DNA of 60,769 nt, filler included, from Hausera hauseri (taxonomy: Eukaryota): the NCBI GenBank assembly GCA_046269625.1. It is 10 parts of 10 records of this genome, joined end to end, with 100 filler letters (N's around TTAATTAATTAA, not from the genome) between each part and the next. Parts side by side here need not be neighbours in the genome. Positions count along the whole stretch, not along the records: positions 1 to 7,869 come from JBJURY010899648.1; 9 more parts are not named here. The stretch is one strand, 5' to 3'. A model generated the notes under the pieces. That model was not told the origin of the DNA, searched no databases, and worked only from the letters and a program-made list of their open reading frames with translations. Shown in pieces: positions 1 through 57,615 of the stretch (positions are counted from its first letter, which is position 1; each line of letters starts with the position of its first letter). The position numbers and the translations under genes were made by a program.

Positions 1-448
1 AAAAATATTTACCAAGAATAGGCTGTCACGTCTCAAAGTTCATTTATAAAATTTATACTAGCGGAGTTTGTTTTATTTCGTATTAACGGCGTAAATTAAT
101 AACACAGTTTGATTTGTTATGTAATAGATATTTCAAAATTTTATAATAACGGGGTTTCATATAATCAGGTTATACCGTACTTGTTATTTATAGTCAAATA
201 GTATTTGATTTACTTAACCACAATGATGCAAACATTAAACATCAAAAGTAGTCTAATATTGTCTAATAAATAAAACTATATAGATATCGAATAGTCATAT
301 AAATTATCATACTTATAATTTACGGTCAAATGGTATTTGATCCGGTTTTGTTTATATTCTCACATCAATTTGTTGAACATTACGAATTTGTATTTTTATT
401 TAATTTCTATTTTTTCTCATTGACAAATTTCATATGAATTTTAGTTGC

Positions 449-3400
449 ATGGCACGTCGATCAAATGCCAAATTAAAGCTAGATAAATGTAAAATTGATG
501 ATGATAATAATAATCAACAAATAAATAGTGAAAATGATGGAATTAACAATGGTAATCAATGCAATGATGAAATGAAACCAGATAAAATTATTTTGATGGC
601 ATTTTGTAAACGATATATTGAACATACTAATGGCAAAACGATTGAATTAGTATCGGAATTGAATCAATTACGCCAAATCGACAGTAGTAACGTCGGTAGA
701 GATGCTTATTCACGATTGCTCGTCGAGGAGGAACAGATCAGTCGTAAATTACAGGAAATCCGCCGACAGAATCATTTAATTAGTGAATTTATGGAACAAG
801 GACAGCCAATGGGCCGGCCAAGATTTCATTGGGATTTTTTGTTGTCGGAAATGGTTTGGTTGGCCGATGATTTTGGTCGGGAAAAGGCATGGAAAAGGAT
901 AGCTGCAAAGAAGGTGAATCTATAACAAGAATTGTCGTTGAAATTTTCGATTTCAGCTTGCCAATGCCGTTGTGAAGTCGATCCGAGAGAAAAAGAAGAA
1001 GATCTCGAAGGACGCCAAACAGGAAACGTTCAAAGTCCGACGAAATTGTGCCAGTGTTGCAAAAATCGTTAAAGATTGGTGGCGACAAATGGAGAAGGTG
1101 AAATATTGTCCAGTTTTAGTTGTGTGTTACTCGATAATAAGATCGTGTTGGCCAAACAACAGTTCCGACTGAATGCTAAACGGCAGGAGGCCGTTACGAC
1201 GCATCTGGGCAAAGTGATTGAGACGACGGAGAAATATACGGAATGGTTGACGGAGGATTTGCGACCGACTGGCAGTGGTGATTTGACGGAATATGCGGAT
1301 GATCCGGATTTTCTGGTAGATGCGTTGTTGCCGTTGGTGATTTGTTGAACGTTCGTTGGTAGGTGGAATCGGATGAATTGGACGTGCCGGATGATGAGGA
1401 GACAATTGAGATTGATGAACAGGAACATGATGTTGATGAGGATGATGAGGTTGGGGATTTGTTACGTGAGGCAACGATGGATATTGATACGTTGTTGTCA
1501 ACGTTGCCTGATGAGTATGTATCGTGTGCTGTTAATGGTAATGAGATGGATTGTGTTGGTTGTGACGACGACGATGATGATGATGATTCATTATGGGATG
1601 AGGAGGAAACGATGGTTGAACAAGAGGAATTTGAGGAGAAACATGGTGAAATGAATGATGATAATGAATTGGGAATGTTGGAGAAGGATGCAGAGATGAC
1701 AGTTGATGAATTGATTGGTATGTATAAGGAAAATGATGATGTTGATGAGTTGTTGTCATTATCAAGTAGTGAAATGACGGTATTGGATGATAGTAGTTGT
1801 GATGATGATGCCAATGCAAGTGCCAATGCAAGTGCTGATGAGGATGAATGCTACGGCATAAAATTGAATGCTATTGTCAATGATAACGGCAATAACGATA
1901 GAAATTCCATACGATTGCAGGTTATTAATCTATTCCTATTTCATTTGTTCATTTGCACTAATATCCACCATAGGATGATATCGAATTTCTAACTGAAGCA
2001 GCAATCAGTACACAACCAAAAGGAAACACGATCGAATCTGCAAGTGTGAATATCAAAGTACCGCATCTTATTCGACACACTCTACGAGAATATCAACTCG
2101 TCGGTCTGGATTGGTTAGCGGCCATTTATGAGAAACGATTGAATGGCATTCTGGCTGATGAGATGGGATTGGGCAAAACGATACAGACAATTGCGTTGTT
2201 GGCTTATTTGGCATGTGAACGCAGTATTTGGGGTCCGCATTTAATTGTCGTACCGACGAGTGTCATTTTGAATTGGCAAGTGGAATTTAAGAAGTGGTGT
2301 CCGGGATTTAAATTGTTAACTTATTACGGATCAGCAAAGGAACGGCGCGATAAACGTCGTGGCTGGACAAAAACGAATGCATTCCATGTTTGTATCACAT
2401 CGTATAAATTGGCAATTCAGGATTGTTTGGTATTTCGGAGGAAGAAATGGAAGTATTTGATTTTGGATGAGGTTTTGTAACTGATTTATGGTAATCTATA
2501 ATTCGCTTTTCCATTTGCATTTGCAGGCACAAAATATAAAGAATTTCAAATCCCAGCGCTGGCAAACTTTACTGACATTCAATAGTCAGCGACGTCTGCT
2601 GCTTACTGGGACTCCACTGCAGAACAGTTTGATGGAATTGTGGTCGTTGATGCATTTTCTTATGCCGAATATATTTCAGTCGCATAAGGAGTTTCAGGAA
2701 TGGTTTGGTTCTCCATTGACTGGTAAGTAGGTAATATGCCATGTGTGTGTGTGTGTGTGTGTGTCATGAATGCGCGCTGATGCAGGGGACGAGGGGCGGG
2801 GGGGGGATAATGTCATGATTCCGCATCAGCGTGCCAATTAGACCATACCCGTAATTGTGATTTTATTCATTAATACGAATTCATGCAGGAATGATTGAAG
2901 GCAATGCTGATTACAATGACCAATTAGTAAGACGACTCCATAAAGTTCTACGACCGTTTATCCTACGTCGATTGAAGAAGGACGTTGAAAAGCAAATGCC
3001 AAGGAAGTATGAACATATAATCATGTGCAAATTATCGACCCGGCAGCGATGTCTTTATGATGATTTTATGTCCTTGTCAAGGTACGTTTTGTGTGTGTGT
3101 GCGTGTGTGTGTGTGTGTTTATTGTGATCAATACCCCCCTGCCTCCTTATAACGGGCATTTTACAGCACTCAGGATACACTAACCAATGGACAATTTCTC
3201 AGTATCATCAACATCCTCATGCAACTCAGGAAAGTTTGTAACCATCCAAATTTATTCGAAACTCGACCAACGATATCTCCCTTTCTCGTTTTCGATCAGA
3301 TGAATTTACAATTTCCTTCGGTAGTATTCATCAACGATTTTTATTCCCATGCAGACAATCGTAACCAATTTCCATACTTGTCATCAAATTTCGTTCAAAT

Positions 3401-4489
3401 GGCTCTCGATTTACCGAAATTTGCTGCTGAACGAATATTCGGTTTGAAACCGCGACCGAATTTGATTGAGGAAGTTGATGTCATTCGTGTGGAAGATTGG
3501 GGTATTGTTGTATATTTTATCATCGTCATTGCCATTCGATAGTATCCGTCAACAAATCCTTGTCCGGCCATAAGAACAGCAAGCAGTTTCTATTCCGCAC
3601 CATGTTCACGGCGAATGTTGCGGAGGACAATGGCAAGGCATTGGGAGAAGATGGTAATGTTAAATTGATTTGTGTGTGTATTTTATTGTGTAGCAGAGCC
3701 GGTCGTTTTGGATGCGATTCAATTGTTGGACAGGAGTTTTACTGGTTGTCATGTAGTTAGAGGTATGTGATGGCTAACGTAGGGATGGGGGGTGAGGTGG
3801 GGTGGGTATGGGCGGTGATTAGACTGCGGTGTGTGTGTGTGTGTGTGTGTGGAACAAGTGAATTACCGTGTCATGATGATGATGATTTGCTGTCAACCGA
3901 CTTATTCCATTGTTCCACCAATGGTAAATGCCACACACACACACACACGCACACGCATATTTATGTGACCGTTGTATATTCAGATGCATCAACAAGCAGA
4001 CAGGATCAATTCTTACCGCAACAAATACTCATCAACAGAACATCACAGAGAAGGCAAATTTTAAACAGCATGTCATTCCGAAATGAAATACGCTGTTCTG
4101 TAACATCACCATTCGGTCCTGATGTTGTCGATGCCTTGTCCATAACACCGAATAATCTCGTAACTCTGCCAGGACTTGCTGGTAGGACAGTTGACGAAAT
4201 GTTCGCTGATGTAGCCGATTGGATAAAATTGTAAATTTTATTGTCTGTCTGTGTGTGCAGCTGATTAATCAACGCAATTTTTGTTGCATTAGATTCGTCT
4301 GCTTTGTACCGGCTGCCGTTTCCAATGGTGTAAGGATCAATAAACCCTGCATTTCACGGGTTCGGGAATGCCTTGTCCATGATTGCATTGTGGCATGGAC
4401 GAAGCAATTGACACCGATTGGTTGTTTCCATGTTGTGAATCAGCAACAGGTCCAGTTTCCTGATACTCGACTTATCCAATATGACTGCG
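449..4489 (+). CDS. SRCAP: Domino/SRCAP/p400 (SWR1-family) chromatin-remodelling ATPase, multi-exon, 3'-partial
   Basis: HSA motif HWDFLLSEMVWLADDF, an acidic region, then SNF2 motifs LREYQLVGLDWL, NGILADEMGLGKTIQTI, LILDEAQNIKNFKSQRW, LLLTGTPLQN, MQLRKVCNHPNLF, ending RLIQYDCG. GT-AG introns e.g. 914-956, 1098-1141, 1316-1362, 1921-1973, 2472-2526, 2723-2888. Start codon and later exon borders are approximate; the helicase C-lobe is not in this contig. Confidence 0.92.
2742..2764. repeat. (TG)n microsatellite in a Domino intron (others near 3090, 3830, 3932, 4640)
   Basis: Direct dinucleotide runs. Confidence 0.9.
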
Positions 4490-4689
4490 GTTAGTTGCCA
4501 TATTTCATTTTCTGTGCACAGCAATTCCATATTATGACATGGGAATGTTGTGCACAATTTCCTAAATTTGCGTTCCTTCATTTTCTGTGATTTGCTGCTT
4601 ATTTTCTGTACTTCTATTTGATTTGGAAATACCGGCAACACACACACACACACAGGCACACACACAGATATACATTGGTATGAAACATA

Positions 4690-7600
4690 CAATACAAGGA
4701 CAGGTAACAAAATATGAAAGTAAGTCGTCAGTAAGGCTAGAAAAATTACAGTTAATTACGAGAGGTACTTGAGAATAGTAAGAAAAGGTACAACAGAAAG
4801 GAAGTAAAACCAATAAGGATAGAGAGGATGAAGGTAAGAAAGGCGAATTAAAGCAGCTGCATTTCGAGAACTAAAAGAGCAACAAATTTGTGAGAGAATT
4901 GAGAAAATGAATGATGAGAAAGTTCGATCATTGCTCCTATTGGTAGATGGGAAAAGACTCGTGCATCAGAATCGGATACAGGAAAGAAGAATGAAGGAAA
5001 AGGATAAACCTTTGATACAAGAAGAGGAATTGAAGACGCCGGAACGGAATTTATGTTCCAAAAGTGGAAGTGAAAACAGTGAGTGAAGTGGGGAAAGTGA
5101 ATGCAAAGGAAAAATCAGCAGTTACGAATGCCCGACTGTGAAATTAGATCAGAATGATACAGAAATAATTCGGAATTCAGCATCAGTTGAACCAACTACT
5201 CTGTTCGAGTCAACGAATTAATATTGGAAATATTCGGTTGAAGGCTCAAAAGGAAAAATTATTAATAAAAGAATGTTTGTGACTGGAACAATTGACAAGA
5301 CAGGATATAGTAAGGGTGCCATTGAGCATGGGTATGACTGAGAATCGCACCATAGTATGCTGAGCAAATCCCCGACATGGAATGAGATTTAAATTATAAA
5401 TTGATACCAGCAGATGTGACCATACAGTATTTCGATTAAATTATAAAGGGATATTATTCTTATCCACAGCAGAAATAACAAAAGCCAAAAGGAACATTGA
5501 TAAATCAGAGATGAAACCTCACCTTTATTTCCATACGAAAATTGATTTTATTTATGATTTCCAACAATAAAATATTGACGCAGTGTATCGAGATGTAATA
5601 TTAAATGATTGCAAATTGAATAGGGAGGTAATGAGAAATCGGATAGATTTGTCATCAATAACGGATGGAATGATAAAATATCCAGCCGAATCACCTCAAG
5701 CAGAGAGGAAGTTCGCTCGAACAATGGGTGAAACACTCAAATGAAGAGCAACAACTGACTGTACCATGGAGTTACCTATTTGGTACAAGGAAAAACCACG
5801 TTTATTGCAACCAATCACGCACATATTATCGGATCCGGCTGAAAAACCGTATTTACATCAAAATTGTACATACACTGTCGCCAGCATATCGATTAACCGA
5901 TAACTTATGGATAAGGATGCTGAAAAAGGTGCAGATTACTCCATATCGGCGGATTACTTTGATCAATTTGAAAACGGAACAAACATACAAACCATTAACA
6001 GATCTTGTAAAGATGGGCGTATATTCCGAACAAGATATGGGAAACCATAGACGGATGATGATGTTTCGTCAACACAGACAATGAAAGTGTTAGCTGACCA
6101 CACTGGGAAGGCTAACTGGGAAAATGTGATGGGATTGGACTATGGAAAGAAAATAGCTAAGGATATTCGCAACTGCATGGGGATGGTACATGTGGTTTGG
6201 TCAATTTAACTGTGGATGGCTAGGATTTTACTATATCTTTGCTTTTATAAAATCAATTGTGACCATGGTAACTGAGGGATGGGGTATTAAACAAGCTGCT
6301 GGATGCACGTGGAAAATTATTTATGCATTGATTCCATCCATAGCCAGTTGCTTTTTAATGAAAATGGGGATGGTGAATGGAAGCAGAAGCATATAAATAA
6401 GATTGAGGAGGATGACAATGATGAGGATAAACTTCAGCAGAAAAGGTAAATTCGAAAAATCCTAAATCAATAGAAAAAAATAAAGACATGGAGCCTGATT
6501 ACTGCTGGAAGTAAGAAACGGAGGACATTGTTATTTGATATCGCACAGATGAGGAAATGGAATGAGTATCCAATGGAACAGTCATATTTTATACCTACCA
6601 ATGAATATATGGGCATACATTGTTCAGGCGATATGGATTATTATGATGAGAAATGTGCAAAGCTGATGCTTTATCCATCAGCTGCAAAGGACGCTGCAAT
6701 AACCAGCATAGACGGGGGTAAGGTAATTTGGATAGATGGATATCCTATTGCAGCTATAATTGATACCGGAACATGGGCCTCAATGATTTTATGCAAACAA
6801 CTGCCGGAACAAGTAAAGAAGAAGTTACAGAAACCCACAGAAGACATTACAAATATTTTGAATACAAAATTTATACTTGATCAAATGCGACACAGAAGTC
6901 CTTAACCAGAAATTTAAAGAGGAATTTAGAATAGGTGACGAATTGCTGGCTGAAGCTATACTCGAATGCGATGCGTTAGCAAAATGAAAAGATGTGTGTA
7001 CATTTGGTGACTCAACAAATCCAGTCACACGGAAAAGCAAGGAACGAGAAAAAAGATAGTGGCAGCTACAGCGGAGATTGTGCTCAAAGCTGCAGTAGAA
7101 GGTCGAAACGAAGTAGATGATTATATTGAACCAAACTTAACTTTCATGGACAAGAATGTGCTGTGGTAGCTCATACAATTGATAACATTCGAGAACAATA
7201 AGTAATTGTTCGAATAGCCAATGCCTCTAGTAAACGTAAGTTGATTAGAAAAGAAACAAGAATTGCCTATGTATAGGTAATAAAGCGATGGAAGGCATTA
7301 TTTCAACTGTACAGGAGTTGTCTGAATTCATGGAAAGACAACGACATAAACTGCGAATAGAAGGCTATAATTACTATGGACGCTGCACACACAATGTGTT
7401 ATGTGAATGATGTTATAATCGGTTCAGCTGATTATAACCAGCATAAGGAATATCTCAAACATATGGTAGAGAGATGCACACTTTTAGCAATTGAAATAAG
7501 TTTTAAAAATGCTGACTTTATACGCCATACAGTAAGTAGGGACGGTATTAGTCCACAGATTGGAAAGATCAATAAAATTCAGGATTTTCCAGTCCCAAAG

Positions 7601-7869
7601 GCAGTTAGTGGAGTTCGAAAATTTCTTGGCCTTATTGTCAGCAAATAGCTTCTTCCCTACATTGGTTATTGCAAGCAAAGTGAGCTTATATGGGCACAGA
7701 AGGATAATTTACTGGCTCCACCGATATTAGCTTATGCAGATATGTTGAAACCATATTTTGTAGCTACGGATGCAAGTACGAATTGGAGTAGTTTTATCAC
7801 CAAAATATGAACAAGGACAGGAACATGCTATATCATTCGGAGGACGGAAGCTGAGAAAGCAGGAGAAAA
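4690..7869 (+). mobile_element. Heavily deleted Ty3/Gypsy element (env-before-pol type), apparently inserted in a Domino intron
   Basis: ~5000-5170 (KDKPLIQEEELKT..SGSE) resembles the 43477-43850 element. Then a glycoprotein remnant, protease IDGYPIAAIIDTG (~6730-6770), degenerate RT (CYVNDVII, VSGVRKFLGL) and RNase H (VATDAS ~7760). Left border approximate. Confidence 0.8.
5225..6396 (+). pseudogene. Chuvirus-like envelope glycoprotein remnant
   Basis: GKIINKRMFVTGTIDKTGYSKGA, GVYSEQDMGNHRRMMMF and the TM region WFGQFNCGWLGFYYIFAFIKSIV align by eye with the 10917-12764 glycoprotein; many frameshifts. Confidence 0.75.
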
Positions 7870-7969: not shown

Positions 7970-10270
7970 TTTTCAGTTGTCGTTTTTTGGTATTTTTTCG
8001 TTTTGCACGAACTCGATAATTTGCTGAATAACCGTGTCTTTAGCTTGTTCAGTTGTAATTCTAATTGTCTTATTCGATATTAGGATTCTTTGTCGTTCAA
8101 CTGGCTGTTCGAGTTGTAGTTTCTTTAGTGTGGTGATTGCACTCGTTTTTGTCTTTAACCTTGACAGTGCGTCGGCGTCGACGTGTTTATTACCAGTTTT
8201 GTATTGGAATTCAATGTTATATTGTGAGATTTCCTCGATCCAACGATTCAGTCTAAATGTTGGGTTAATAGCTCATCCTTTTAATGTCGTAACTGCTTTG
8301 TGGTCGGTTACTATTATAATCTTTTGTCCGTATACATAGACATTAAAATATCGTAGTGCTTCCTTTACGGCTAGCGTTTCTAATTCGGTAAGTGATTAAT
8401 TCTTTTCTGCTTTTTTAACGAGCGTCTATCATAGGCTATTGGATGTTCTAGTTCTTCCTCTTCTTGTTTCTGAGTTAGTTCGTATCCTATGCCTTCTTTA
8501 CTTGCATCTGTTTTAATGATGAATGGTAGATTAAAATCCTGATATCTTATGACTGGTCCGCTTGTCAAAATCGTCTTCATTTCATTGAATGCTTTTTGCT
8601 CCGCTTCTATCCATCTCCATTTAGTTCGTTTTTTGAGTTGACAATACACTGGTGCGTTAATTTTCGAATTGTCTGGTACGTAAGTGGCATAATACCCACA
8701 TAGGCCTAACCAATGCCTTAACTCTTTTTGGTTCTGCGGTTCCATACAATCGGATATTTTGTTTAGTAATGATTAATCTGGTTTAGATCCTCCTTCTTCG
8801 ACTATATGTCCGAGGTATAATACTGCGTTCTGTGCCCATTTACATTTCTTTAGATTTAGTTTTAATCCTGCTTGTTCCAATCGCATGAGTGTATCTTCAA
8901 TGTCCTTTAAGTGTTCTTCTTCTGTTTTTGATGCTGTCATCACGTCGTCTATGTAGGCGAATTCATGATCAAGTCCATAAATATTTTGTTCATCATTCGA
9001 ATAAAAATAGCTGGTCCTGTGGTGATGCCGAAAGGCATAACATTAAATTCGTATACGCCATCGTGTGTTTTGAACGCTGACTTATATCGATCCTCTTCTT
9101 CGATTTCCACTTGCCAGTATCCCGATTGTAAGTCGAGAGTGGTAAACAATTTCGCTCCAGATAGTCTATCTAATGCGTCTTTTACCGGTGATAATGAGAA
9201 CGAGTCCCTCATCATAAGCGTATTTAGCGCCCGATAATATATGCAAAATCGACGTTTCGTAGTTCCTTTCATTTTAACCATAAGTATAGGCGAGTACCAT
9301 GATCGATAGCTGGATCGAATTATGTCGGCCTTTAACATTCGCTCTACCTCCTTAGCTATTTCTGGTTTTAATGAATAAGAGGGTGGATACAATTTGGGCA
9401 TTTTTTGTTCTTCTAGATCGATTTCGTCATTTGAACTGGGTTTCTTCCTCAATGAAATTGTTAATCGTAGGGCCTTGACTCTACCGATGTATTCTTCATT
9501 TTGCGAGATTATCGATCAGTATTTACAGAGTAATTCATGAAATTTACAGTACGCCTCAGGAGAAAATTTGGTTTCAACGTGAGGTGGAAATTCTGCATAA
9601 TTGTATGGTTTTTCCTCTATCGTCACTGCCGATACTCTGCAAGTGTGACCCAAAATAGTGTTAACGTACAATCTTACGGGGATTGGTGCATTGTTGACTA
9701 GTCTTATAGGTATTCGTCCCGTTACTACGATACATAGAATATTGCTAAACGTAAGGTTGAGATCGATATTCCCTTGGGGCTCGAAGTATACTGGCAGATC
9801 CTCGTCCTGTCGAATATGTGCGAAAATTATCATTTCGGTTCTAGGCGGAATGTCTTCATCTACCGGAATCCATACTTCTCCCGATTTCCTTTCCTTTATT
9901 ACTTTTGTACCTTTTATTGGTTCAAGTTCACTTAATTTTCCGATATGCACATCAATCGCTATGCCTGGTATCTGCTTCAATATGTCACATCCTAGTACTA
10001 CATCGTCCGTTAATTGGTCCATTATCGCAAATTTGTGTTGAAGTGCTTGGTCCATCATATAGACAGTAGGAGTCCATTTAAATTTCGGCTTTGATACTTT
10101 TCCAAATGCTCCTACGCTACCTGGGTCTGATGATGCGGGTGGGCATAATTGGTCGCGTAATATAGTTGGTATTGATTCGTATTTCACAAATGACTTTTCC
10201 GATCCTGTGTCGATTAGGGCATATACTTCCCAATCTTCGATGTATATTTTAGCAAAGGGTCTTCCTTCTA
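7970..10270 (-). pseudogene. pol: aspartic protease, dUTPase-like spacer, reverse transcriptase, RNase H
   Basis: PFAKIYIEDWEVYALIDTGS (~10200-10260); WYSPILMVK, LDLQSGYWQV, YEFNVMPFG, AYIDD (~8945-8959); LRHWLGLCGYY, FIIKTDASKEGIG. Confidence 0.93.
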
Positions 10271-10916
10271 CTACCGTTCCAAAACAATTTGCTGCTATCT
10301 TCGACCGTTTTATAGTAGAGACTCTATGTCCGTTTATTGTGATTTCTGGCGATGAGATAATATCTTGCCTTAAATGTCTTAATTCTCCGTTCGGTTACAA
10401 GTCGTTAATTGTTATCTCAGTAACGCGACCGTCGATGAGCGGTTCCTGGGGTAGTGAACTCGAGATTGAACACAGTTTCGGGTTTTCCCAGATCGTTGAT
10501 TTTGATTCAATATAATGCGGTATCCTTTTTGAGTATAATATTCCGTGATCGTTTCCTATTAATCCTTGATTGGTGACATTCATTTTCCGTAGTATCCCAT
10601 ATTGTTTCGTCTTTTCATAAGGATCTTCATAGTCAATGGGTTTGCGGTAGATGTCGGACCTGTACGACACAACAGATTTTTGGTCACAGTCTTCATATAT
10701 TGGCGCAGTCGGTAACTGGCTGGGTATTGGTGTGTTTATCACCGAGTACATCCTATGTATCTTTATTCTGGAATTCCCTTCTCCTCCCTCAGGCTCGTCA
10801 TCGTCTGAATCATCCCTTCGTGTTATTGTTTTCTTGCTTTTACGTCTATACAGAATCGAGGGCCGCCTTCGTCGTTTGCGAGTATAATACCCAACGTGCC
10901 GTTCTTTGTCATTCTT

Positions 10917-12764
10917 TTAGCGATTTTCTTCATAGGACTTGAGCATTTTTCCGAAGGGCGTGATAATTTCAGTCAAAATTTTGCAGGAAAACCTTGTTAG
11001 TGTGAATATTTTGTAGGCGTTGATGATGGCTTGGATCACTTCTTTAATTAGCTGAACTAAAAAATAGATGGCTAAGAATCCCGATGCAGCTTGTCCAAAA
11101 ATTAGACATCTTCCCCAAATCTTATACAATATTTCTAAAGTTACTCCTTGATAGTGATTAGCACCAAGTAGCGATTCCCATTTTGCTTGGAAGCGGGTGT
11201 CATCCATAACCACTGACATGGACCGATTCAGTTTATAAGTTCTCTGTCGCGGAAATGCTAAGAATTGCCTAAAGGCTTCTATGTCCTTTGGCCTATAAAT
11301 TCCTTTATTGGCCGTGTCCTCGAACTTCTCTTCAGATAATCCTTTTATTAAATTTGTCCCAGTTAGTTTACTGGGAGTTTTAGCAGCGCCTGCATTTGGT
11401 AAACTTATCCAGTCGATTCCGATACGTCGAAACATAGGTTCGCCTAAGCTCGTTTTGCATGCTTTTAGTATTGTTGGTTCGGTTGAGTTTGCCAGTAATA
11501 CTCTGGTGAGTGGCATCGCTAGTCTCGGAATATTTTCATAGATGACCGGTAATTCTTGCATACATCTTTTCTCTTCTCCGTTAATCGGTACGTCTCTTTT
11601 CTCGCATTCGTAGGTTAATAGGACTTCCCCAGTAACTCGTCCGAAAACACTTTCTTTCATTGGTATAATTGATGATGCCACTTCTGGTTTGGCATAAATT
11701 AAGGCCAGTTTGGTTCTCATGACCTCAGTATCTAATCTGCAGTCATTTGTTATCATTTTATGATATAGCTCCGCTATTTCGGTTTGTCCTTTGTAATAAA
11801 CATAGTCGTCACGATTTTTGAGGTAATCTTCAATACGTATATCCTGCGTTTTCAAATCGTACGTTTTCATGTAAATATCGGTTTCCGCTAAAAAATGCTT
11901 CGTAGTTTGTGGAATACATAACTACATCGCAACATGTTAACATATCCTTTCTAATAAACTTCAATCCGTGTGCGTCCAATATCAATATCGTCGGTATGGG
12001 ATGTTCTATAACATCTTCCCGCAATCTAGTATTTGTGTGTAATTTATTTGTATAACGTTTTCCGGTTGTCTCATTAAACTTTAACTCTTTGATTTTGATG
12101 AAATTGCAATCTCTCTTAGAAGGTGGCTCCATACCTCGACTGAACTTCGAAATGTGCAAGCACCATCATGAATGTGACACTTTGGATTCTTGGTGAATAG
12201 TTTGGTAACACTATAAAACATTGCTTTCAATAATCTCAACTCGGTTTCGTAAAAATCTACGACTGATATTCCTCCTTCCTTTCCTTTTCCGGTGTCATAT
12301 TCTGCTCCAACACAATAACCGGTGTGCATATTTAGTTTTCCGACTGTCACTTTGTAGGCTGTAATGATTTTGACTTCTTGGGCTTCTAACTCCATGCCGT
12401 CCCAAACCATTTTGCCGGTTAGCTGGGCTCCTAAACAGTGTTGTCTATCCACGTTCATGGGGATTAATGGTGTGGTTGGTTTGATAACTGAAGAATGTCC
12501 ATGCATATTGCTACAATGAAAAACGCTGCGGGATCTCCGTATCATGCATTCGGACGCATCCATTGCGATTAATTCACGCTGTTGATATAATATATACCTT
12601 TTTTCTCTTCTTTCGAGCTTATGAGGTCTCACATCTTCGCATTTTTATTAGTTCATTAGAGAATATTTCTGACCCACCTTAAATTTATCACAGTCGTATA
12701 TGGTAACTGTCCCTAACTGCTTTACTAACATCATTATCGTCAGCAAGTTGATTAACAAACTGGA
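10917..12764 (-). pseudogene. Chuvirus (Jingchuvirales)-like envelope glycoprotein (env)
   Basis: Hydrophobic leader LLINLLTIMMLV, then YDC..YSL, CMIRRSRSVFHCSNMHGHSSV, GEVLLTYEC, CMQELPV, PLTRVL, PMF..W, GIY, and C-terminal TM WGRCLIFGQAASGFLAIYFLVQLIK. Broken into 3-4 ORFs. Confidence 0.82.
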
Positions 12765-15700
12765 TTCGTTTCCTTTATTCGGAGAGATATTTCGTATCAC
12801 GTCTTCTAAGTTATTAGTTCCTTTTATCTTGTCCTCTTTTTCAAATAATTTAGTCCATTTTATTTCTTTGGGTACCCTTTTCGCTGCTTTTCTAGCTAAC
12901 AGGATTGTCTTGACAAATTCATTTTCCCGGAGTGGGTTAGTTCTTACTGCTAAATATATCAAGACTTTCCTTAATTCTTCCATCGTATTGTCTGTCATAA
13001 TTCTGTCGATTACCATTTCGTCAGAGAAGGTACTTTTCGATAATTTAAATCGTGGAGTCTTCATTGTCCGGGCTATATTATATATTAACCTTTCCTTCTC
13101 GGATAATATGTCGCCTTGAAGTCCAGTGAAATTGACTATCCTAATTAAATCTTTTATTAGCTCAATTAGTTCTTCGTTATCTAAACTCGCGGTCGGTACT
13201 GATAGTTGTCTCAACTCCTTAATTAGGTCTGCATTATAATCAATTTCTTTTAATTTTCTCGGTCTTCCGACCGGTTGTTTCGGTTTCATCGGAGGTAAGG
13301 TTTCACTTAGAGGAACTAAATTTTTATCGTATTGCGGATTGCAGTTATCAGTCTGTAGATATTCGAAACACATTGCGGAGTCTTGAATCCCCATAATTTT
13401 TCCACATAATGCTCTGTATGTGCCTTTCTCATGGCTTCATTTTTGGTTTGCTCACTAACTATTATTGCTATTATTCGATTTTCTTCTAGCGGTATAATCC
13501 CTACGTCTACTAAGGATTCTGGCTCGTCTAATATCCTACTCCTGAAACAGAGTCGGTAATTGACCCCTTCTCTACCCTCCTTATCCATTATTCGTTGTTT
13601 TGTATCCGCAACGGTGGTGCAGGTAGTGCATGTAAATTCTTCATCGTCCATTCCTTCAGATGGTACCTTTACTTTAATCTCCGCTTCTGCTTTGTTTTTC
13701 AATATTTTAGAGTATTCTCTTATCAGAAGCTTGGGTACTGCGCTGTATGCGGTGTTTTCACTGAACAGCTTGGTCAAAGTTGAAACCAATTTCCTTAATC
13801 TATATTCATTTATGTTTATTTTCAACACACTGCTCAATTCCCTTTCGGCTATTGTGGAATCAAGTATCATTTGTACGTCAAATTGTGTTTTCTGGCTACC
13901 AATAGGTAACTCATAAATTTGTATTGTAGTTCTCTGACTCTGCTCAGTCAAACCTTGGAGATATTCATCCCACTCGGTATTATTATCTGCGTCAGGTAAC
14001 TCGTAGTTCACTAATGCCGCGTGTCCAACCGGGACTCTTTCGCGTAATTCTCTTAACTGTGGTTGAAAGGTTTTCATAATGGATACCCTAAATCCATCTC
14101 CATTTCCGCACGCTTGCTGTATCAAGGTTATTAATTGGCACATTTCTTCCGGTTGTATCAGAGCTTTTTCCTGATAATTGGTCACTTCCGCAATTTTGTC
14201 TCTGCCATTTTCGTGTAAACTCCGTTTTGTCATTAATTTAAGATTTCATAAGGGAATACTTCATCTTATAAACTTCTGTCTTTCTCAGTAATTCGTTTAA
14301 TTCGCGTTGTATTTTCTCGGAGCGTAACCTGGTTTCTTTTACCAGACGTATCCGATTTATTAGTTTTTCGCTACTACCTCGACAATTTCTGCCATCTCTG
14401 TCAATAATAGGAATAATTTGTGCGTTTCATTTTATACTTCGGCGTCCGGATCTACTGCATCCATTAGCCTGCTTATGAACTTAGCTTCAATGCTCGTCAA
14501 CTGAGGATCATTTGTAATTTTTGTTAGTTCAGTATGGCAATGTATGTCAAAGCCTGGTGTCCATTCTGCTGGATTCTGTAAACATTGTAGTGTTTGTGCC
14601 AGATCAATCCGGTGATCATTGCATATTTCTAATGTTTCTATTTCCTGTGCTGAGATTTCTTTCAATGGTTTCTGCATTAGGTTCTGGATCCCTTCTCAAC
14701 GAATGTTCGCTAATTCTCGCTGAAAATCATTTAGTTTGTTTCTTTTTCGGTAAAATTCCTTCTCTTCTACCATACTATATATCCCTGCCAGTGTTGTTTG
14801 CTCTTAATCCTTACTCATAAATTCAAGTCCTCGGAGTGATTTAAATTTAATTCGTAACTTCGCTTCATCTTTCATCGTACCGATATCTAGTAACATTTCC
14901 TCCAATTGGTGCCTCATTATAGGTTTACTCAGAGCGAATTCTGTTAATCGTTCGTTTGTTACTTCTGCTATGGAAGGTAACAAGTCTGCCCACTTCCTTA
15001 ATTGTTTAGATATTGATGGTGTCGCGTAGATTATTTCGTCTAATGTCCTCAAAGCTTTTTTAGTTCATGATCTGGCCCTCGTACAAATTCTATAATATGT
15101 TTCATGTAGTTGAACTCTTCTTTATACTCGTCTAATTTGAGAAGACAAGAAAGTGTTATTCTCTGTACTTCTAGCTTTTCAGAGTGAATTACACTAATCC
15201 TTAAGTCGTTGATTTTGGTTCGTATTTCATTTTCCCTTTTAATGCGTATTTCCAAATCTAGATATTGTCGAGGATTATCCTTTGTCAGGCTGCACATTGC
15301 TATTAAAGAGGGAATATCAATTGGGTCTATACCCAATATTTATAGGTCAGCATTAGTCAGTTCATATACTGGCTTGTTGTGAAGACAAGGATTTATCGTG
15401 TCTTCGATCTCATGTATCAATCCTTCTAAATTACGTCTTGGGCGTTTCAGTTTTGGGTTGCCTTTTAGCGCGTTTAACAGCCCTTGCGCTTAATTAACCT
15501 GATCGAAGAACGTCTCGTTTCTATTCCTTCATACTTTCGTAAAATCAATTCCTCTCTTCGTCCACCATTTTAATTTCTTCTGCCAACATTCTATCAAGTC
15601 TTGGGATGTTTCTTGGAGTTCGCCAGTTGTGGTTTCTTCCCCTTTCGGAAAGCCGATTTTAAGCTTTTTATACAGCTTCTCTATGAATTGTTGTTCTTTT

Positions 15701-16432
15701 CCGGAAATGTCCAACTGTTTGCTCATCTGCTGGAGTTTTTGTAAGCTCTCCTGTAGCCTTTCGAGATAATACAGTACGTCTCTAATTTTGGTTAGTTCGT
15801 TAGCATTTTTCCAAGACTTTCTAATTTTCCAAATTTTATAGATTTTTCCTCTTCCGATTCCTCTTCACTAAGTGGTAACGGACATATTTCATTAATCTCA
15901 TTGATATTTGAAATATCTGTTGTTTCCAAAACGTTTTGAGTTATAACAGGAGTATTTAGCTCTGCTTCATTTCTTAAAGTGATGATGAAACCTTCCTCCT
16001 TGTCTACATACTTTTAATAGGGAATCGCGAACGAGTTCCTGACCTTCTCCTAAGAGAAGGGCTTCTACCTCTATTCTTTGTTATCTTAAGTATTATTGGT
16101 CCAATAAATTCACTCTCAACCTTGTCTGTTGTTTTATCCTTAATTTGAGACGCTAATTCGGTATCTGCGTCCAAGTCTATACTTGAACACGTAATCGGCT
16201 TTTCTTCTTCCTCCTCTTTCGTCGCTTGATTTAGATTTTTTTTCCTGGCCATGTTAGTATTCTTAGGTGCTATGACTTTTTCGTACTCCGTTTTTGGTTC
16301 TCTTAATCCATGATAAACTTCCATTTGGTGCAGCTTTTCCTCGTACTCCTTCCTAGCCTGGATTACTTGTAGATTATTAGATTCGCCCATATTTCTCAGA
16401 TACCTCCCTAAGTCCTGCATCTCAATAATCAT
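12765..16432 (-). pseudogene. ~3.6 kb accessory coding region between gag and env: helical/coiled-coil region, ubiquitin-like domain (13454-13681), AT-hook (13254-13274)
   Basis: Chain of same-strand ORFs; TVADTKQRIMDKEGREGVNYRLCFRSRILDEPESLVDVGI; PVGRPRK; 5' part conserved with 58914-60769. Confidence 0.75.
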
Positions 16433-16499
16433 ACTTATATCACCTCGTTTTCCATAAATTACTTCTAAGTTATTCTTGATTGTGCTAACTTTACTAGTT

Positions 16500-17560
16500 T
16501 CTGCAAACGATATGCTTCGTGGGTTAGAGCATGATCTAGCTATATGTTCTTTCTTACTTCATGAATAACAAATCAGATTCCCGTCTCGGCCGATCCTTTG
16601 TCGTCCGTCTTCATTTACTGGTGATTTGGGTCTGCCTATTGTTTTGTTTTGAGCTTGTTTATCGATCTCACTATTTCTATTTTCAAAACTCCGATTTTCT
16701 ATATATTGATTTTTATTGCTTCGGTCATTATTTTGATTTCTGTCCAAATCATAACCTGTTTTGCCATAAGGATTATACATATTCCGATTATCATTCCTAT
16801 TATCATATCTCGTACTGCAATTAGGGATATTTTGAGCTCTATTCTCAAAGCCTCGGTCCTTATTATTGTCGTTTAATCTTCTATTGTTTCGGTTCCTATC
16901 CCGATTATCGCAATCATTATTTAGGTCATACCTATCACTCTGTTTAGCGTATCTATCTAATGCCATTTCTAAGTTCTGAGCTAGTTGTAGTGCCGTCTTG
17001 AAATTGTCTGGTCGAGCTAAAATTAGTTGCTTAACTAAAACTCTGGTCCATATACCGTTTATTAATTGCGCTGTCATCATGACATCTAAATTCGGTAGGC
17101 TAGCCTTTTCTGCCACTTCACGTTCCACTTCTGTCTTTGCCTTCGCCGCATTAGCTATCCTTAGCGTACTCACGTAACTATTAGCAAGTTTCTTTAGTGC
17201 GAATGCGAATTGAGTAACCGACTCACTTTTTTGTTGCGTTCTATTCTGAAAGGTCATAAGCTTCTTTTGTGGCGTCACCGTTGGCAATAGTTTACGATTT
17301 AGGGCTCCTACTACAGAGGACCATGATTTCTCCTCATTGTTAGTAAGTTCACTATAGGCGTCTGCAACCAAATTTTTCAAGTATAATGACAGTCATTTAA
17401 TCATAACCTCGGGCGCAAGACTGGCTCCTTCTGCGTGTAATTTATAAGTTCTTAAAAAGTCACTTAGTCCGTCCGGGTCATTATCATATGCCGGTAGGTT
17501 CAAAAAATCGAACGTAAATATATCAAGTTTTTGAGCTACTGCTGGGTTTTCTGCTTCCAT
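16500..17560 (-). pseudogene. gag (retrotransposon gag domain, N/D/R-rich linker, degenerate CCHC knuckle)
   Basis: ATG at 17560; one in-frame TGA; RTQQKSESVTQFAFALKKL major-homology-like region; LICYS..HIARSC. Confidence 0.85.
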
Positions 17561-17920
17561 CTTTCTATCGTTCGGTTTGTCTACTTTAATTCTGGGAGGA
17601 GCTTTGAATTCTTTAACGGAGGTTAGTTCAGTGTCAGATAAACAGTGCTTATCGAATATTTTGTCTTCTATATAAAGTTTATTTCGAGTTTCTCTTTGAT
17701 TACGTTTTTCTATACCTTTTATTAATAAATTCTGATATGAGTTAACTCTATCAATATTTGCTCTCAGTTTAATTTTTACTTAATTTCCCTCTAACCACTT
17801 ATAATCCCAAGTTTAAACTCTTTACTAATAACGTATAACAATTATTTTATGTGAATGGCGCTATTCGCCTGTATGTCTTTAATTGACTCTCAAAAGTAAT
17901 GTCTAGCGAGGCACAAAATG

Positions 17921-17937
17921 TCCTGCTAGGGTCGCCA
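17921..17937 (-). promoter_or_regulatory. Primer-binding site TGGCGACCCTAGCAGGA
   Basis: Lies 2 nt after the LTR end ...GTAACA; identical PBS at 57599-57615; cognate tRNA not certain (Arg/Ser-like 3' end). Confidence 0.88.
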
Positions 17938-24200: not shown

Positions 24201-24868
24201 ATGGATGACTGGACGTTCACGGCAGACAAAAGACAGGAGTGAGTTGACGGGATGTACAGTGATACTTCATTGTGTGAAATAGAAGTTGGCAATGTCGAAT
24301 GAGGAGGATAAAGAGATGTATAGTAGCTGCGCCGTGGCATTGAGTGGAGCATTAATGGTCGTTATGTGTTGATTGTAATTGAAGACAAGGAAGGAGAGTT
24401 GCAGCGAAGCAATTCCAGGAGAATGGTAAAATCCAAAAGGAGTTTGTGCGATTTGCTTCCGTGTTAACAAGAGATATGGGCGTGCAGCCAGGATAACGGT
24501 AGCAAGTGATGATTGGGGTAAAGGAGTATCCAAAGATATTAAGCTGAAAAACCTTTTAAAGTGAAAAATGGTGTGAGCTATGAAGGATTTGTAAATGTGC
24601 AGAACAAGTCCGCACCGGTGGGCGCAAACCAGTAAAAAGAATTTCACCCACCTATGTTTGAATATCTGAGTCCTGGATGTCGAATTTGGCCACATCTGAA
24701 GTGTTTTCCCAAGTGGATCATCCTTGTTGATCAAATGGACGCCGGTCTCGTCGACACCTCTTGAATGTTGATTTTTTTTTTGTTAAATAGATTGTTACCG
24801 AGAGGCTTTGAGAGGATATTGTAAAGAATCGTGACGAATTTGGAGCCCGCTGACTGAATCTCGCTACT

Positions 24869-25295
24869 CTAGACATGGAAAATACTGACAGTGAAGTAAC
24901 CGCCTTTCGCCATGTCCCTCTTCAACAGTGGTCGAATGATTTCATGATTCGTTTTTTTATGATCGTAATCGAGTTTTGACACGAGTGCGCAGAAATTCTT
25001 ATCGGGAATATTGTGGGCAGATATTAGTTTCCACAGAAAGCACTGCTTGATGGCACCCCAATCCAAACTGTGGGCCAGCACGTCGACAGCACTTCTGGCG
25101 TCGAACAATTCGATGTCTGTCTTTTCAATCTCGAAACCTGACAGACAAATTTTCATTGCATCGATTGACGAAATGCTCAGACGAGCAAAGGTCAGGTTTC
25201 CGATTGGTTCTGTTCGGAAAACTCGATAGAGGCCTGGCAACAGATAAACCATAAGTTTAATGTCGTCTTGATTGAGCACCTCTGAGTCTTTAAAC
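24869..25295 (-). pseudogene. INTS3: Integrator complex subunit 3 fragment
   Basis: LLPGLY..F, VLAHSLDWGAIKQCFLWKLISAHNIP, FTVSIF resemble INTS3 (SLDWETFEQYCAWQLFLAHNIP); internal deletion. Confidence 0.72.
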
Positions 25296-25464
25296 AACGA
25301 AATTTTTAGATTTAGCTTTTTTAGACTGTTGCATGTACTATTAGTATTAGGCCATTGTATACCAAAATTGTACTGTTGACGAGGTTGTTGAACTGTACCC
25401 GCACATGGTCTATTTATTTGGATAACTTCTGGACGGTCAATAATTGTGTAGAGTAAATCAGCAC

Positions 25465-26230
25465 TGTCCGAATTGATGATGACTTTATAACGACCGGCAA
25501 CATCCACACCGATTTTATATGACGTGAAACTTTGAGACGGATTGAAATTGAACACAAAAACGACACTGGCTCGATCGAAAACGATAATTTTATCTTCCTC
25601 GCGCTTTCGGATAACAAATGCCTGTGGGGTGCTAACCATTTGTATTTCTCTTCAGTTGTGTTCATGATTCTATCAAAATTATAAAGGAATTTGTATTTGA
25701 GCATCTCGTCATCGACAAGATTCCATTGCCGTCGAACATAATGGTAGCTGTTTCCGTTTCCTACAGGAGGAAAATCGAGCCATTCCGGATGGCCACATTC
25801 GTTACCCATGAAATTCATATAAGCGTCTCCACCGAGACCATGGATTATCAGTCGTATCATTTTATGTAAAGCTATTCCCCGATCGATTACAAGATTGGGT
25901 TCGCCTATCGTGATCATACTCGTGTGCATGTCTTTATCCATCAACCAGAATGCCAAGGTTTTGTCACCAACAAGTGCCTGATCATGTGATTCGGCATAAG
26001 CAATATTCGGTTCGTCATAGCGACGATTAGTGAGGGCAAATACAATACTTCCCATGTCCCAATCTTCATCGGCGTACTTTTTCGTCAGCTCAATTCACTT
26101 ATCCGCTATGGCCATTGCCAATCGATAATCAAACCTGGCACCTCCTTCCGTAATAGGTCTACACAAAGTCGGCATATCGGATACTTCTTCACAAATTGCA
26201 ATAATGAACGGAAATTTTGTTTTCAGAAAG
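25465..26230 (-). pseudogene. GBE1: 1,4-alpha-glucan branching enzyme C-terminal fragment, intronless
   Basis: [57 protein letters not shown]; one stop and a frameshift. Confidence 0.92.
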
Positions 26231-26239
26231 TAATTGGCC

Positions 26240-27301
26240 AACATTAAATATGTCAACGATTTCCTTCAATTTATTAGATGGGATCCCTCTTATTCGGCAA
26301 TACAGATACAGTTCCTCTTCACATGTCAACAAGTTACGAAGTGCATCGAATTGCGGACAATATCCTGTATTTGTATGTGATGCAATCGTGTCAGTGATTA
26401 TTGATTTCCCATTGATGAATGATTCTCCATTTGTTATGTTCTCTTCTCCAATCAGCATTTTAAACACTGTTGTCTTCCCAGCTCCATTAATTCCTAACAG
26501 ACCAAAGCATTCATCATGCTGCACTCTAAATGTGACATTGTTTACTGCTAACACCCTCTTATCAGATGAAATGGAGTCTTTCACAGTTTTGCCAAACCGG
26601 CACAATGCCTTGAAACTTGCATTGTAAATTTTCGTCAATCCAACAACCTTCAATGCATACTTATCAGCCGGATTCTCTCGGACAACTTTCCTTTCCAATG
26701 CAACATCTTCCTCTTCATTTAATATTACTTCATCGTCTTTAATATTGAAAATATAATTTTCCCACAACGTAACATGAATGAGACCGCTCTTGATCAGAAA
26801 TAAAATCAGCGTCCAGCACACGAACAGAATGAGCAAGGAACAGATCTTTCTGTCGGCAATATCCCAAGCAAACACCGTAATCGTAATTTGATGGGAGAAA
26901 ACTGTACATTAAGTAGTTTGATGATGAATCAATAAGTCCTCCACCTAGATCAAATTGCGGCCAAATAAGAAATAATTTCTTCAAAATATCATTAACAGAT
27001 TTCAATGAGGGATCATCCGTTTCTAGCAGATCGAATATAAAGGTGCTGACAGTCCCAATAACTGCAATCAGCCCATGTAACTGTACAGTGCAACAAAGGT
27101 CCTGATAGGTCTTGTAAAGTAGAATGTAAAGATGTACATGTGGGGGATAATGGCAAATCCGTACAGAATCAGTAAATCAATAAAGGCCCCAACATTTTTG
27201 TACCATGTGTACGACTGGTAATAAAATGCAAAAACTACGGCTATAATGATGACTATAGGAATTAAATATTTCACAATATCCCACAGAAATGTTGATATCC
27301 A
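26240..27301 (-). pseudogene. ABCA-subfamily transporter fragment (TM helices + truncated NBD)
   Basis: LYGFAIIP, PQFDLGGGL, ECFGLLGINGAGKTTVFKML, GYCPQFDAL; truncated before the signature motif and Walker B. Confidence 0.9.
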
Positions 27302-28792: not shown

Positions 28793-28800
28793 AAGCGAAC

Positions 28801-42410: not shown

Positions 42411-42852
42411 NNNNNNNNNNNNNNNNNNNNNNNNNNNNNNNNNNNNNNNNNNNNTTAATTAATTAANNNNNNNNNNNNNNNNNNNNNNNNNNNNNNNNNN
42501 NNNNNNNNNNTACATTTTCAAATTAAAGTTTTAATTTAAATTTAAAAATGTTTCTAATTTAAATTTAGAATTTCTGTTCTCAATTATATCCTCACAATGC
42601 TCTTGCGGCAATTTCTATGTTTCTCTCTATCTCTTCTTGATTCGGGTTTACACCCTTCATTACCATTATTTTGTATAAAAGATAAGATATAGCTGTTACA
42701 ATTTTACGTCGAGATATACCGGTTCCCATCATTCTCGACAAAATATCTTTTTCTTGGATTTCATTTATCCTCTCGTTCGTGGGGATTTCTGCAAATTGTT
42801 CACTAATCTTTGCAATTTCATTCCTTATAGCTTGCATTAGTGAATCCGGTAT

Positions 42853-43407
42853 TTAGAGATTAGTATTAAACTCAACGAATGCATTATGCATTCTTGCTAG
42901 CAAGGAATGTAGTAATTTTGCCAATGATACATTATCTGCACCATATTCATCTTCTGTTGTTAGAAATCTTCGAAAGACTTCGTCATCTCTAGCTTTTCTA
43001 CCTTTCAACTGATAAAGTTTCGTCGTTCCTTTTGGTCTGCCACGGTTTTTTTTATCTGTTTGCATTTGTTCTGATATAGGCATATTCACTCCCGTTTCTA
43101 TTTTTTGAGCTTCATGCTGATGTTCAGTTTTCTGTATCTCTTTTCGCCTAACATCAGTGACAATTTCGTCAATTATTTCTTGTTCAGACTGTTTATAAGT
43201 AATACACACAGGATTGTATCGATTTTCCCAGATACCTACTTCATACAAGGTTTCGTATTCCAGCAGAGTGCGTCCATAGAAACGCAACTCTATTTTTCCT
43301 CGAGGCTGGATAATCCCATTGATATTATTTTTCAATGTCATTATCTTATCCAACGACTTCATTCTTAGAACATGAAAATCTTGGTTGTACTGTTGCAGCG
43401 TAACCAT
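42853..43407 (-). CDS. Accessory ORF fragment with ubiquitin-like domain (43195-43410) and AT-hook (43030-43044)
   Basis: DKIMTLKNNI..IELRFYGRTLLEYETLYEVGI; NRGRPKG. Confidence 0.7.
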   Translation of the reverse strand: MVTLQQYNQDFHVLRMKSLDKIMTLKNNINGIIQPRGKIELRFYGRTLLEYETLYEVGIWENRYNPVCITYKQSEQEIIDEIVTDVRRKEIQKTEHQHEAQKIETGVNMPISEQMQTDKKNRGRPKGTTKLYQLKGRKARDDEVFRRFLTTEDEYGADNVSLAKLLHSLLARMHNAFVEFNTNL

Positions 43408-44033
43408 TACTTCAGGGTCTTCTCCTAGTGTCCTTACTCTACCCGCATATCGATAAATTATATACCGTACGATGTTCTAGTATGTGCTTGTACGCGCAGA
43501 ATATATTAGCAGTAAATCCAGTAAATTAGCAAATTGTTGATGGCTAAATGTTGGCAATAGTAGCATAGACAGATCTTGTCTAAACCGAGTGCCATCGATT
43601 AGTTCTTGGTTAACATAGCTAGATATTTTCCAAACTATTTCTACGCCATCCTGATTTAAATTTACAGATGAAGACTCATAACTTGGGGATTTTTCTTTTA
43701 TTTTCTTTTTTCTGATCCTTTTTATCTTTTCTTTGGGTTCACTTTCTCCACTTGACTCACTTTTTTCACTTCCACTTCCAGAAGGTAAGTTAAGTTCCAG
43801 AGTCTTTAGTTCTTCTTTTTGTATCAAAGGTTTATCCTTCTTCTTAACCCTTTTTTCTCAGTATCCGATTCTCATACGGGAGTTTTTTTGGGTCTACCAA
43901 TAGGAGAAATAACTGAACTTTTATCATTTATTTTTTGTCTTTTCTCACAGGTTTGTTGCTCCTTTAATTCCAGGTATAGCTGTTTTAATTTGGTTAACTT
44001 ATCTTTCTCCTCTGTCGTATTGGTTTTACTTTC

Positions 44034-45050
44034 TTATAATTTAAATCTGATCTTCTGTTGTAACTTTTCAGTTGTTTCCTCGGGCTCTGTATCCGTAGTT
44101 TCGTGCTCATTATTCGTATCAGATATATTGCCTACGATGTCGACATTCTTTTTCTTTTGACTTGACTGTCCTTGATTAGGGCAAGTACGAGCCATATGTC
44201 CGTATTTTTGACATGCAAAACATAATGGCTGTCCGTTCTGGTTAACCGTTGGTTTTCTCATCGCAGATTTTTGAGGTTGGTCTTGTTGCCACGTAACCTT
44301 TTTTGTTGTTGCCCCGTTTGATTCTGAATTTTATAAAACGGTTTTTGAAAATTTTTCTTTGACTGAAGGCTTTTCATCTTTTTATCATCAATTTTTTGAG
44401 GCTTTTTGGTACTTTTTAATCTTTTACAGTACTGCTCAATTTTTCTAGCCTTACTGACAGCTTTCTTATATGTGTCAGGGTCAGCAACAATAATATAATT
44501 TTGTATTTCCTTAGTAACTCCATAACAAAATTGAGCCAGAAGAGCGTCTTCTCTTATATCATCATCTGCGTAGGCTCTCTGACCCAATTTCTGAATGGCA
44601 CATGCATATTCCTGCACACTTTCACCTTTTCTCTGACGTCACCTGTAAAACTCTCAAATTCGACATTTTCCTGATGGGTCTACTAAAAGTCTTTCTTTCA
44701 GGGAGTCCTTAAGGCCAGCTCAATCAGCTTTGTCATCATTCGTAAGCTGAGCGTAAGCAGTAAGTGCTATTCCTTTAAGATGCAAGGGAAAACGTTGTAT
44801 CCTAAGCTCATCTGACCAAGCAAAAACTCACTATAATCTTGGTCCGGTTTTCCTTTAAACTTATTCATCGGAAGGACCATTGTACTAGTCGTACTTGAGC
44901 CAGTTTCTATTCCAGAGCTAGACACTGGGTTTCTTTCTATATTTGTGTTTGGTTCAGCCAAGGGGTTTTCGTCTGATTCAGAACTACTCCTTGCTGAATC
45001 AGTACGTGAAGTTGTGGTGCTAGCGTTAATTCTACTTCGAGTGTTATACG
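44034..45050 (-). pseudogene. gag with CCHC zinc knuckle
   Basis: KFKGKPDQDY, major-homology-like region, CX2CX4HX4C. Confidence 0.85.
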
Positions 45051-45060
45051 CGAGTGTGAT

Positions 45061-45078
45061 TCCTTACTCGGGGCACCA
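45061..45078 (-). promoter_or_regulatory. Primer-binding site TGGTGCCCCGAGTAAGGA (elongator tRNA-Met-like)
   Basis: Lies 1 nt after the LTR end ...TATCA; resembles the complement of the tRNA-Met(e) 3' end ..CGGGGCACCA. Confidence 0.8.
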
Positions 45079-57081: not shown

Positions 57082-57083
57082 AC

Positions 57084-57596: not shown

Positions 57597-57598
57597 TT

Positions 57599-57615
57599 TG
57601 GCGACCCTAGCAGGA
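57599..57615 (+). promoter_or_regulatory. Primer-binding site TGGCGACCCTAGCAGGA
   Basis: Identical to 17921-17937. Confidence 0.88.

Follow-up and report, generated by a model that had tools for sequence, protein, structure and literature searches.

Does the gene order of a decayed retroelement, in which an envelope glycoprotein (env) lies ahead of the protease and reverse transcriptase (RT), reflect the rearrangement of a single copy or an old architecture shared by different families? An env placed ahead of pol genuinely departs from the usual retroviral order, and the question is raised by an element at the end of the first contig of the DNA analysed here. The window, i.e. the whole stretch of 60,769 nucleotides, consists of ten contigs, all of them short, with an N44-TTAATTAATTAA-N44 linker between neighbours, and represents eukaryotic DNA rich in LTR retrotransposons; no tRNA genes were found in it. 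We refer to the element on the plus strand of contig 1 as element A, to the element with a primer binding site (PBS) at 17937 as element B, and to the 43.5 kb element as element C. Element A is very probably an inactive copy, damaged by many deletions, from a repeated Ty3/gypsy family with GAG-ENV-POL order; remnants of a gB-type glycoprotein lie upstream of protease (PR), RT and RNase H, and its active ancestor likely encoded them as one polyprotein. The env-before-pol order is itself already published (PMC13524379, PMC6431247).

A decayed element downstream of a host gene

The features recognized on contig 1 are as follows.

404..4489, plus strand: exons of a host SNF2 helicase gene (Pfam HSA 404-922, SNF2 1974-2477)
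4718..5175, plus strand: C-terminal scrap of gag and post-gag region (blastn matches to 44467-43628 in three collinear blocks, 90%, 76% and about 70% identical)
5231..5323, plus strand: short remnant of the N-terminal half of the glycoprotein (own profile 144-173 of 679; blastp to relatives, best E 0.005)
5337..6366, plus strand: predicted gB-type class III fusion glycoprotein, C-terminal 55%, with membrane anchor (own profile 283-640 of 679)
6367..6725, plus strand: acidic tail and coding linker, from anchor to protease (translation; open frame 6474-6905; frame change inside)
6726..7047, plus strand: aspartic protease (Pfam RVP 6729-6881; POL profile 27-135; frame change near 6900)
7103..7297, plus strand: protease-RT linker (weak POL profile match 165-229, E 0.017)
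7370..7780, plus strand: C-terminal half of RT and start of RNase H (POL profile 431-593, E 4e-19)
7779..7869, plus strand: RNase H fragment stopped by the contig end (POL profile 595-624; N linker from 7870)

The host gene, which we take to be of the domino/SRCAP type, has its last visible exon end at 4489, directly followed by GT as read from the sequence, and element A thus probably lies in an intron, in sense orientation. An AC repeat at 4630-4675 between the gene and the element is bridged by no contig piece among those listed.

The initial annotation had placed the start of the env region at 5225 and described glycoprotein remnants followed by a transmembrane segment, and both points agree well with our analysis. 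The first piece, at 5231-5323, scored 6 bits against a profile built from 12 intact relatives, a value equalled in 1 of 300 shuffles. Pfam family PF24664 (the Monjiviricetes fusion glycoprotein, a family of glycoproteins of negative-strand RNA viruses) was matched at 5379-5843 (profile 259-423, E 9.5e-8, with stops read as X) and, in a different frame, at 5869-6360 (profile 429-601, E 3.2e-13), and two hydrophobic peaks at about 6200-6370 mark the membrane anchor in the same pattern as in element B. Against our own profile, the region 5337-6366 gave E values of 8e-33 and 8e-30, interrupted by in-frame stops and frame changes, and about half of the glycoprotein has been deleted. Its first frame is 33-36% identical to the best relatives (E down to 3e-39) and is closer to these than to the glycoprotein of element B.

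Between the end of the anchor and the protease lie about 350-385 nt, or about 130 residues, a distance that spans 33-316 residues in the relatives. The gap previously described as a spacer of some 330 nt is therefore present, but since the frame 6474-6905 is open into the protease it represents a coding linker rather than a non-coding spacer; its segment 6384-6519 is sparsely covered by other copies. Because anchor and protease stand in different frames in element A, the claim of a single frame rests on the relatives and on element B. Downstream, the order of IIDTG protease, RT and RNase H was read correctly in the initial annotation, with the reservation that RT is present only as its C-terminal half and that RNase H is cut. 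The IIDTG motif lies at 6756-6770 (Pfam RVP, E 0.004), YVND at 7400 is followed by the thumb, and TDAS at 7766 marks the start of RNase H; the jump of the POL profile from 229 to 431 corresponds to a deletion of about 200 N-terminal RT residues. The region 7370-7780 is 30-37% identical to env-first polyproteins. Taken as a whole, element A carries env (glycoprotein to 6366) upstream of protease-RT (protease from 6726) on the same strand and within less than 2 kb. Stops and frame changes break its ORFs, and parts of gag, glycoprotein and RT have been deleted. This copy, truncated at its 5' side and reaching the contig end inside RNase H, has neither integrase nor an LTR or PBS.

The family to which this copy belongs is repeated. 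Contigs of two public runs (X1 and X2) stack on 4750-7869, whereas the host part shows no such pile. X1 contributed 4257 records, most of them 85-95% alike, which gave a depth of 44-34334 in element bins versus 9-12 in covered host bins, a summed depth that denotes a repeated family and not a copy number, X1 being possibly the window's own source. The same depth profile was obtained from 487 records in X2. The glycoprotein part and the pol part are repeated to the same extent. Joints linking the glycoprotein part to the linker or the protease were seen in other contigs at 5 of the 12 listed, each of the five in one contig with a short side of 24-36 letters, two of which reach 30.

Two further elements and their relation to element A

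Two other elements of the window, both on the minus strand, are needed to interpret element A.

7997..17937, minus strand: element B (PBS at 17937, gag, ubiquitin-like domain, AT-hook-like motif, signal-like stretch, glycoprotein, linker, protease, RT, RNase H, start of integrase)
42511..45078, minus strand: element C (PBS at 45078, gag, post-gag region, AT-hook-like motif, Bcl-2-like pre-env domain at the contig end)

Element B preserves a single reading frame of 1496 codons from 13436 to 8949, which leads from before env into RT and contains 12 stops; a full gag precedes env and integrase follows RNase H. A hydrophobic signal-like stretch is found before the glycoprotein in element B and in its relatives in the databases (numbered P0001 onwards and described below). 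The pre-env ORF of element B (13319-14245, minus strand) carries the ubiquitin-like domain, a weak match (Pfam E 0.007), and gave no match to the Bcl-2-like profile discussed below (125 of 500 shuffles scored as high). AT-hook-like GRP motifs occur in the pre-env part of elements B and C and in relatives P0003, P0004, P0005 and P0151. A second member of the B family lies at 56807-60769 on the plus strand, with the same 19-nt PBS (57599), a gag 55% identical and 64-76% nucleotide identity to element B; its contig ends before the position of env.

The claimed homology between the glycoproteins of elements A and B was borne out by a tblastn comparison of the B protein encoded at 10920-11921 with the window, which returned 23.9% identity over 264 columns at 5457-6167 (E 1.9e-13) and a second match of 21% at 5878-6333 (E 1.4e-5). 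Local alignments of the two glycoproteins scored 139 and 91, and neither score was reached in any of 1000 shuffles. With 24% identity in the glycoprotein, A and B represent separate families; they are 27% identical in the RT thumb and their primer sites differ, so that env-before-pol is common to at least two distant families, as had been proposed. Element A is a distant cousin of element B.

The upstream part of element A leads to element C instead. Three collinear blocks (4718-4747, 4798-5115 and 5094-5175) match element C, the best of them 4798-5115 against 44035-43724 with 76% identity over 319 nt (E 3e-58), and what is left of gag in element A amounts to a 30-nt scrap of the gag end plus the post-gag region. 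The stretch 4690-5224 gave no blastn match to the 17.9 kb and 57 kb elements. The assignment of this part to a tRNA-Met-primed lineage distinct from that of the 17.9 kb element is thus upheld as regards the lineage, whereas the primer itself is only compatible with tRNA-Met: the PBS at 45078 differs by 1 mismatch in 12 from tRNA-Met ends and equally from two unassigned ends in the supplement to PMC13524379, which leaves tRNA-Met as a compatible, not a proven, primer of element C. The PBS of element B resembles tRNA-Arg ends in the same supplementary list.

Env is absent from the contig of element C, which stops ahead of any env. Nevertheless, the C family looks env-first independently of the join within element A, because the best matches of its gag are the gag-to-env relatives P0008 (E 2e-18) and P0021 (E 7e-10), and because its last 260 coding bases match the pre-env domain of P0001, P0006 and P0015 (17.9 bits, 0 of 500 shuffles). 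The Bcl-2-like stretch of element C (42595-42852, minus strand) was assigned through the profile of these three relatives, in which the Pfam Bcl-2 match is itself weak or absent (E 0.001 in P0006, 0.2 and none). A ubiquitin-like domain that had been suspected by eye in element C received no support from Pfam or PDB sequences, and direct comparison of the post-gag ORFs of B and C revealed no similarity.

Upstream of the PBS of element C, two ORFs lie at 45916-47066 on the minus strand; one, of 268 residues, is without a Pfam match and resembles a DEDD-type exonuclease by eye. A weak relative of it was located at 47837-48160 (tblastn E 0.016) on a contig that also carries a RING finger at 49228-49662.

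Element A is likely to belong to the family of element C, the two parts having been brought together by a deletion joined near 5176-5225. The alternative is a chimera, in which recombination, nesting or misassembly joined 4718-5175, derived from the C family, to an env-pol part that stems from a third family; the gene order would be right in either case. This we regard as unlikely, even though the join skips at least 1.1 kb of the continuation of C together with the start of the glycoprotein, is bridged by no listed contig piece, and involves a contig of C that stops short of env. Against it, the pieces lie on the same strand and in the order expected of an internal deletion, other deletions have affected gag, glycoprotein and RT, the flanks of the join both stand at high depth in both runs, and element C appears env-first on its own by its gag and pre-env domain.

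Relatives, published elements and the age of the env-first order

Word-based homolog searches with the B glycoprotein returned nothing at near or longer lengths, and a scan of viral contigs with the env-first glycoprotein alignment returned no relative, while a HMMER search of 1.84 billion representatives with the same B query succeeded and yielded 402 relatives. Among the best 150 of these 402, the majority are stand-alone proteins of about 650 residues. Eighteen relatives, chosen as top or longest among the best 150, were scanned for domains: 10 of the 18 have PF24664 followed by an aspartic protease in one protein (E<=0.001), five of them with RT-RNase H as well, and 2 of the 18 carry PF24664 after integrase or DUF5641; the remaining proteins stop at the glycoprotein or have other domains, P0008 showing a weak protease match. 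Three of five further cluster members scanned (P0151, P0154 and P0156) also have the env-first order. Gag marks precede the glycoprotein in P0005 and P0012, and integrase follows RNase H in relatives. Because intact database relatives share the env-first layout, the order in element A is no one-off rearrangement, in keeping with the initial annotation.

Several relatives have features of their own. At least two protease-like domains follow env in tandem in P0003, P0004, P0005, P0012 and P0151, the last of which has 4844 residues, a size like that of the planarian element Burro, with ankyrin and zinc-finger matches. P0002, an env-first polyprotein, carries the label of a hypothetical protein from a metagenome-assembled Flavobacteriaceae genome and is likely an animal contig binned wrongly. 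In P0133 the PF24664 glycoprotein is fused after immunoglobulin domains.

In a glycoprotein tree of 42 rows, A and B fall within a 15-row clade (97/95) that takes in every one of the 10 env-first polyproteins; the 2 env-after-pol proteins and the stand-alone proteins lie outside it. Within this env-first clade both belong to a starred 10-row clade (100/98), in which they are not sisters, and as both are long branches their placement inside it is unsure. None of the branches of the RT-thumb tree is starred, and the two rows from the window are long ones. The order PR-RT-RNase H is present in element A, and its pol is probably of the gypsy type. An AlphaFold model of the intact relative P0006, a fold prediction made on this relative and not on the element A copy, had a pLDDT of 82.9 and returned herpesvirus gB at all top ranks shown (best E 3.5e-14), so that the glycoprotein family of element A is, by predicted fold, a class III fusogen of the gB type.

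These relationships qualify the description of element A as an "independent" copy: it represents a separate family but not a separate origin, since the position of both glycoproteins in the supported env-first clade argues for one old lineage and not for two inventions. That the A and B families gained env ahead of pol separately appears improbable to us. Such a history would fit their low identities in glycoprotein and RT thumb, their failure to group as sisters, and the occurrence of GAG-ENV-POL elements in several POL clades across phyla (PMC13524379); it conflicts with their shared place in the starred clade and with pre-env modules of both families that are shared with the same relatives. 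The landing by chance of a chuvirus-like endogenous viral glycoprotein fragment beside an env-less gypsy pol, for which the negative-strand viral affinity of PF24664 and the predominance of stand-alone proteins among the best 150 of the 402 relatives might be invoked, is highly improbable given that the closest relatives are polyproteins of the env-first kind, that the stand-alone proteins fall outside the clade of these polyproteins, that the anchor-protease distance falls inside the range of the relatives, and that the glycoprotein part is repeated as much as the pol part.

The active ancestor of element A likely made one polyprotein. Judging from the anatomy and from class III fusogens, the hydrophobic signal-like stretch before the glycoprotein may thread the chain into the ER as an internal signal, the anchor would bring it back to the cytoplasm, and the protease would then free RT, RNase H and integrase; the trimeric fusogen could coat budding particles and allow cell-to-cell passage into the germ line. 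The copy described here makes none of these products. In Drosophila, particles of gypsy, which carries another env type, can enter neighbouring cells, according to the discussion in PMC13524379.

The closest published counterparts are the errantiviruses described by Chary and Hayashi (eLife 2026; PMC13524379), in which, as presented there, env is exclusively of the gB type in Nematoda, Bryozoa and Platyhelminthes and the order is GAG-ENV-POL, in several clades, a distribution read there as ancient. By term counts and rows, the elements tabulated number 36 for nematodes, 10 for bryozoans and 9 for flatworms, and the flatworm rows are Macrostomum, Prostheceraeus and Schmidtea. The families of the window share with these elements the gene order, the gB-type fusogen, occurrence in many copies and varied tRNA primers, and probably also a gypsy-type pol with RT-RNase H-integrase. 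The nearest group appears to be that of Schmidtea mediterranea (Platyhelminthes C1a): by eye, the N-terminal half of the B glycoprotein resembles the six Schmidtea rows in its pattern of cysteines and motifs and is unlike the ten nematode and ten bryozoan rows shown. In contrast to the listed elements, element A is inactive, with LTRs, integrase and most of gag missing, and it would thus fail the "intact" ORF filter of PMC13524379, a filter that defines the listed elements and not the lineage. Its gene order and type of env place element A in the GAG-ENV-POL lineage, as a decayed and not an intact element. Since the env-first order is published for three phyla, this copy adds a data point and no new principle.

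Burro, or GYPSM1, of planarians (Arkhipova and Yushenova 2019; PMC6431247) is described as carrying an env that is mononegavirus-like and stands, in frame, after gag and before protease, ubiquitin-like and Bcl-2-like domains ahead of env, and an extra protease-RT linker, with an ORF1 of 4873 residues, an internal region of up to 25 kb, and MATH, BIR and ankyrin domains. The apparent likeness lies in env between gag and protease, in the one frame that leads from before env into RT in element B and from glycoprotein to protease in 10 of the 18 relatives scanned (broken in A), in the extra linker between protease and RT, and in the pre-env domains, of which the weak ubiquitin-like match belongs to B and the Bcl-2-like one, assigned through relatives, to C, the region being deleted in A. 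In size the elements differ, with a gag-to-env distance of about 3 kb in B versus the ORF1 of Burro, and about 10 kb from PBS to the start of integrase in B versus its internal region. No MATH, BIR or ankyrin domains were detected by Pfam in the window ORFs scanned, and the identification of element A as Burro was rejected on these two grounds.

Other systems are more distant. Flipped env and pol in non-canonical endogenous retroviruses of nematodes, credited in PMC13524379 to Sacco et al. (2022), share ENV before POL in a metavirus, and the nematode env rows in the eLife supplement are by eye unlike the window glycoproteins. Mosquito BEL/Pao elements with a chuvirus-like glycoprotein (Dezordi et al. 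2020; PMC7642597) have the same glycoprotein family in an LTR retrotransposon, as reported there, but belong to a different retrotransposon family from the window elements; P0055, which has a BEL/Pao-type domain before its glycoprotein, falls outside the clade of the window glycoproteins.

The present data add two families only 24-27% alike in one genome and signs of a compact Burro-like pre-env kit, as well as a possible extension of the host range if the host is a parasitic flatworm. Our search of the literature on gag-env-pol retrotransposons, subscription papers being outside its scope, returned PMC13524379 as the sole match; searches on enveloped gypsy elements of monogeneans or neodermatans returned none, and those on viral elements of parasitic flatworms none with the env-first order. 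We suggest, tentatively and with somewhat less than even confidence, that if the host is a parasitic flatworm these are the first gB-type env-first errantiviruses that we find reported beyond free-living flatworms in the phylum, comprising two or more deeply separated, repeated families that use different primers and keep a compact Burro-type kit before env (ubiquitin-like, AT-hook, Bcl-2-like). If true, the Burro lineage and its anti-cell-death cargo would be older than the split of parasitic flatworms from planarians, and enveloped retroelements with the ability to pass from one cell to another would be present in a fish parasite.

Other elements of the window

Further elements and gene pieces lie elsewhere in the window. 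At 24270-27176 (minus strand), fragments of host genes that are unrelated to one another (ABC transporter, alpha-amylase C-terminal domain and Ints3) adjoin each other upstream of a gypsy element at about 24400-20800. Fragments of a protein-primed DNA polymerase B (PF03175) at 40354-42454 (minus strand), possibly from a Polinton-like element, lie upstream of an env-less gypsy element at 39952-37214. A 1.8 kb repeat with 75% identity is shared by 28750-30560 and 53508-55297 and includes long ORFs (28621-29730) without a Pfam match, and 27407-27663 is repeated at 55550-55807.
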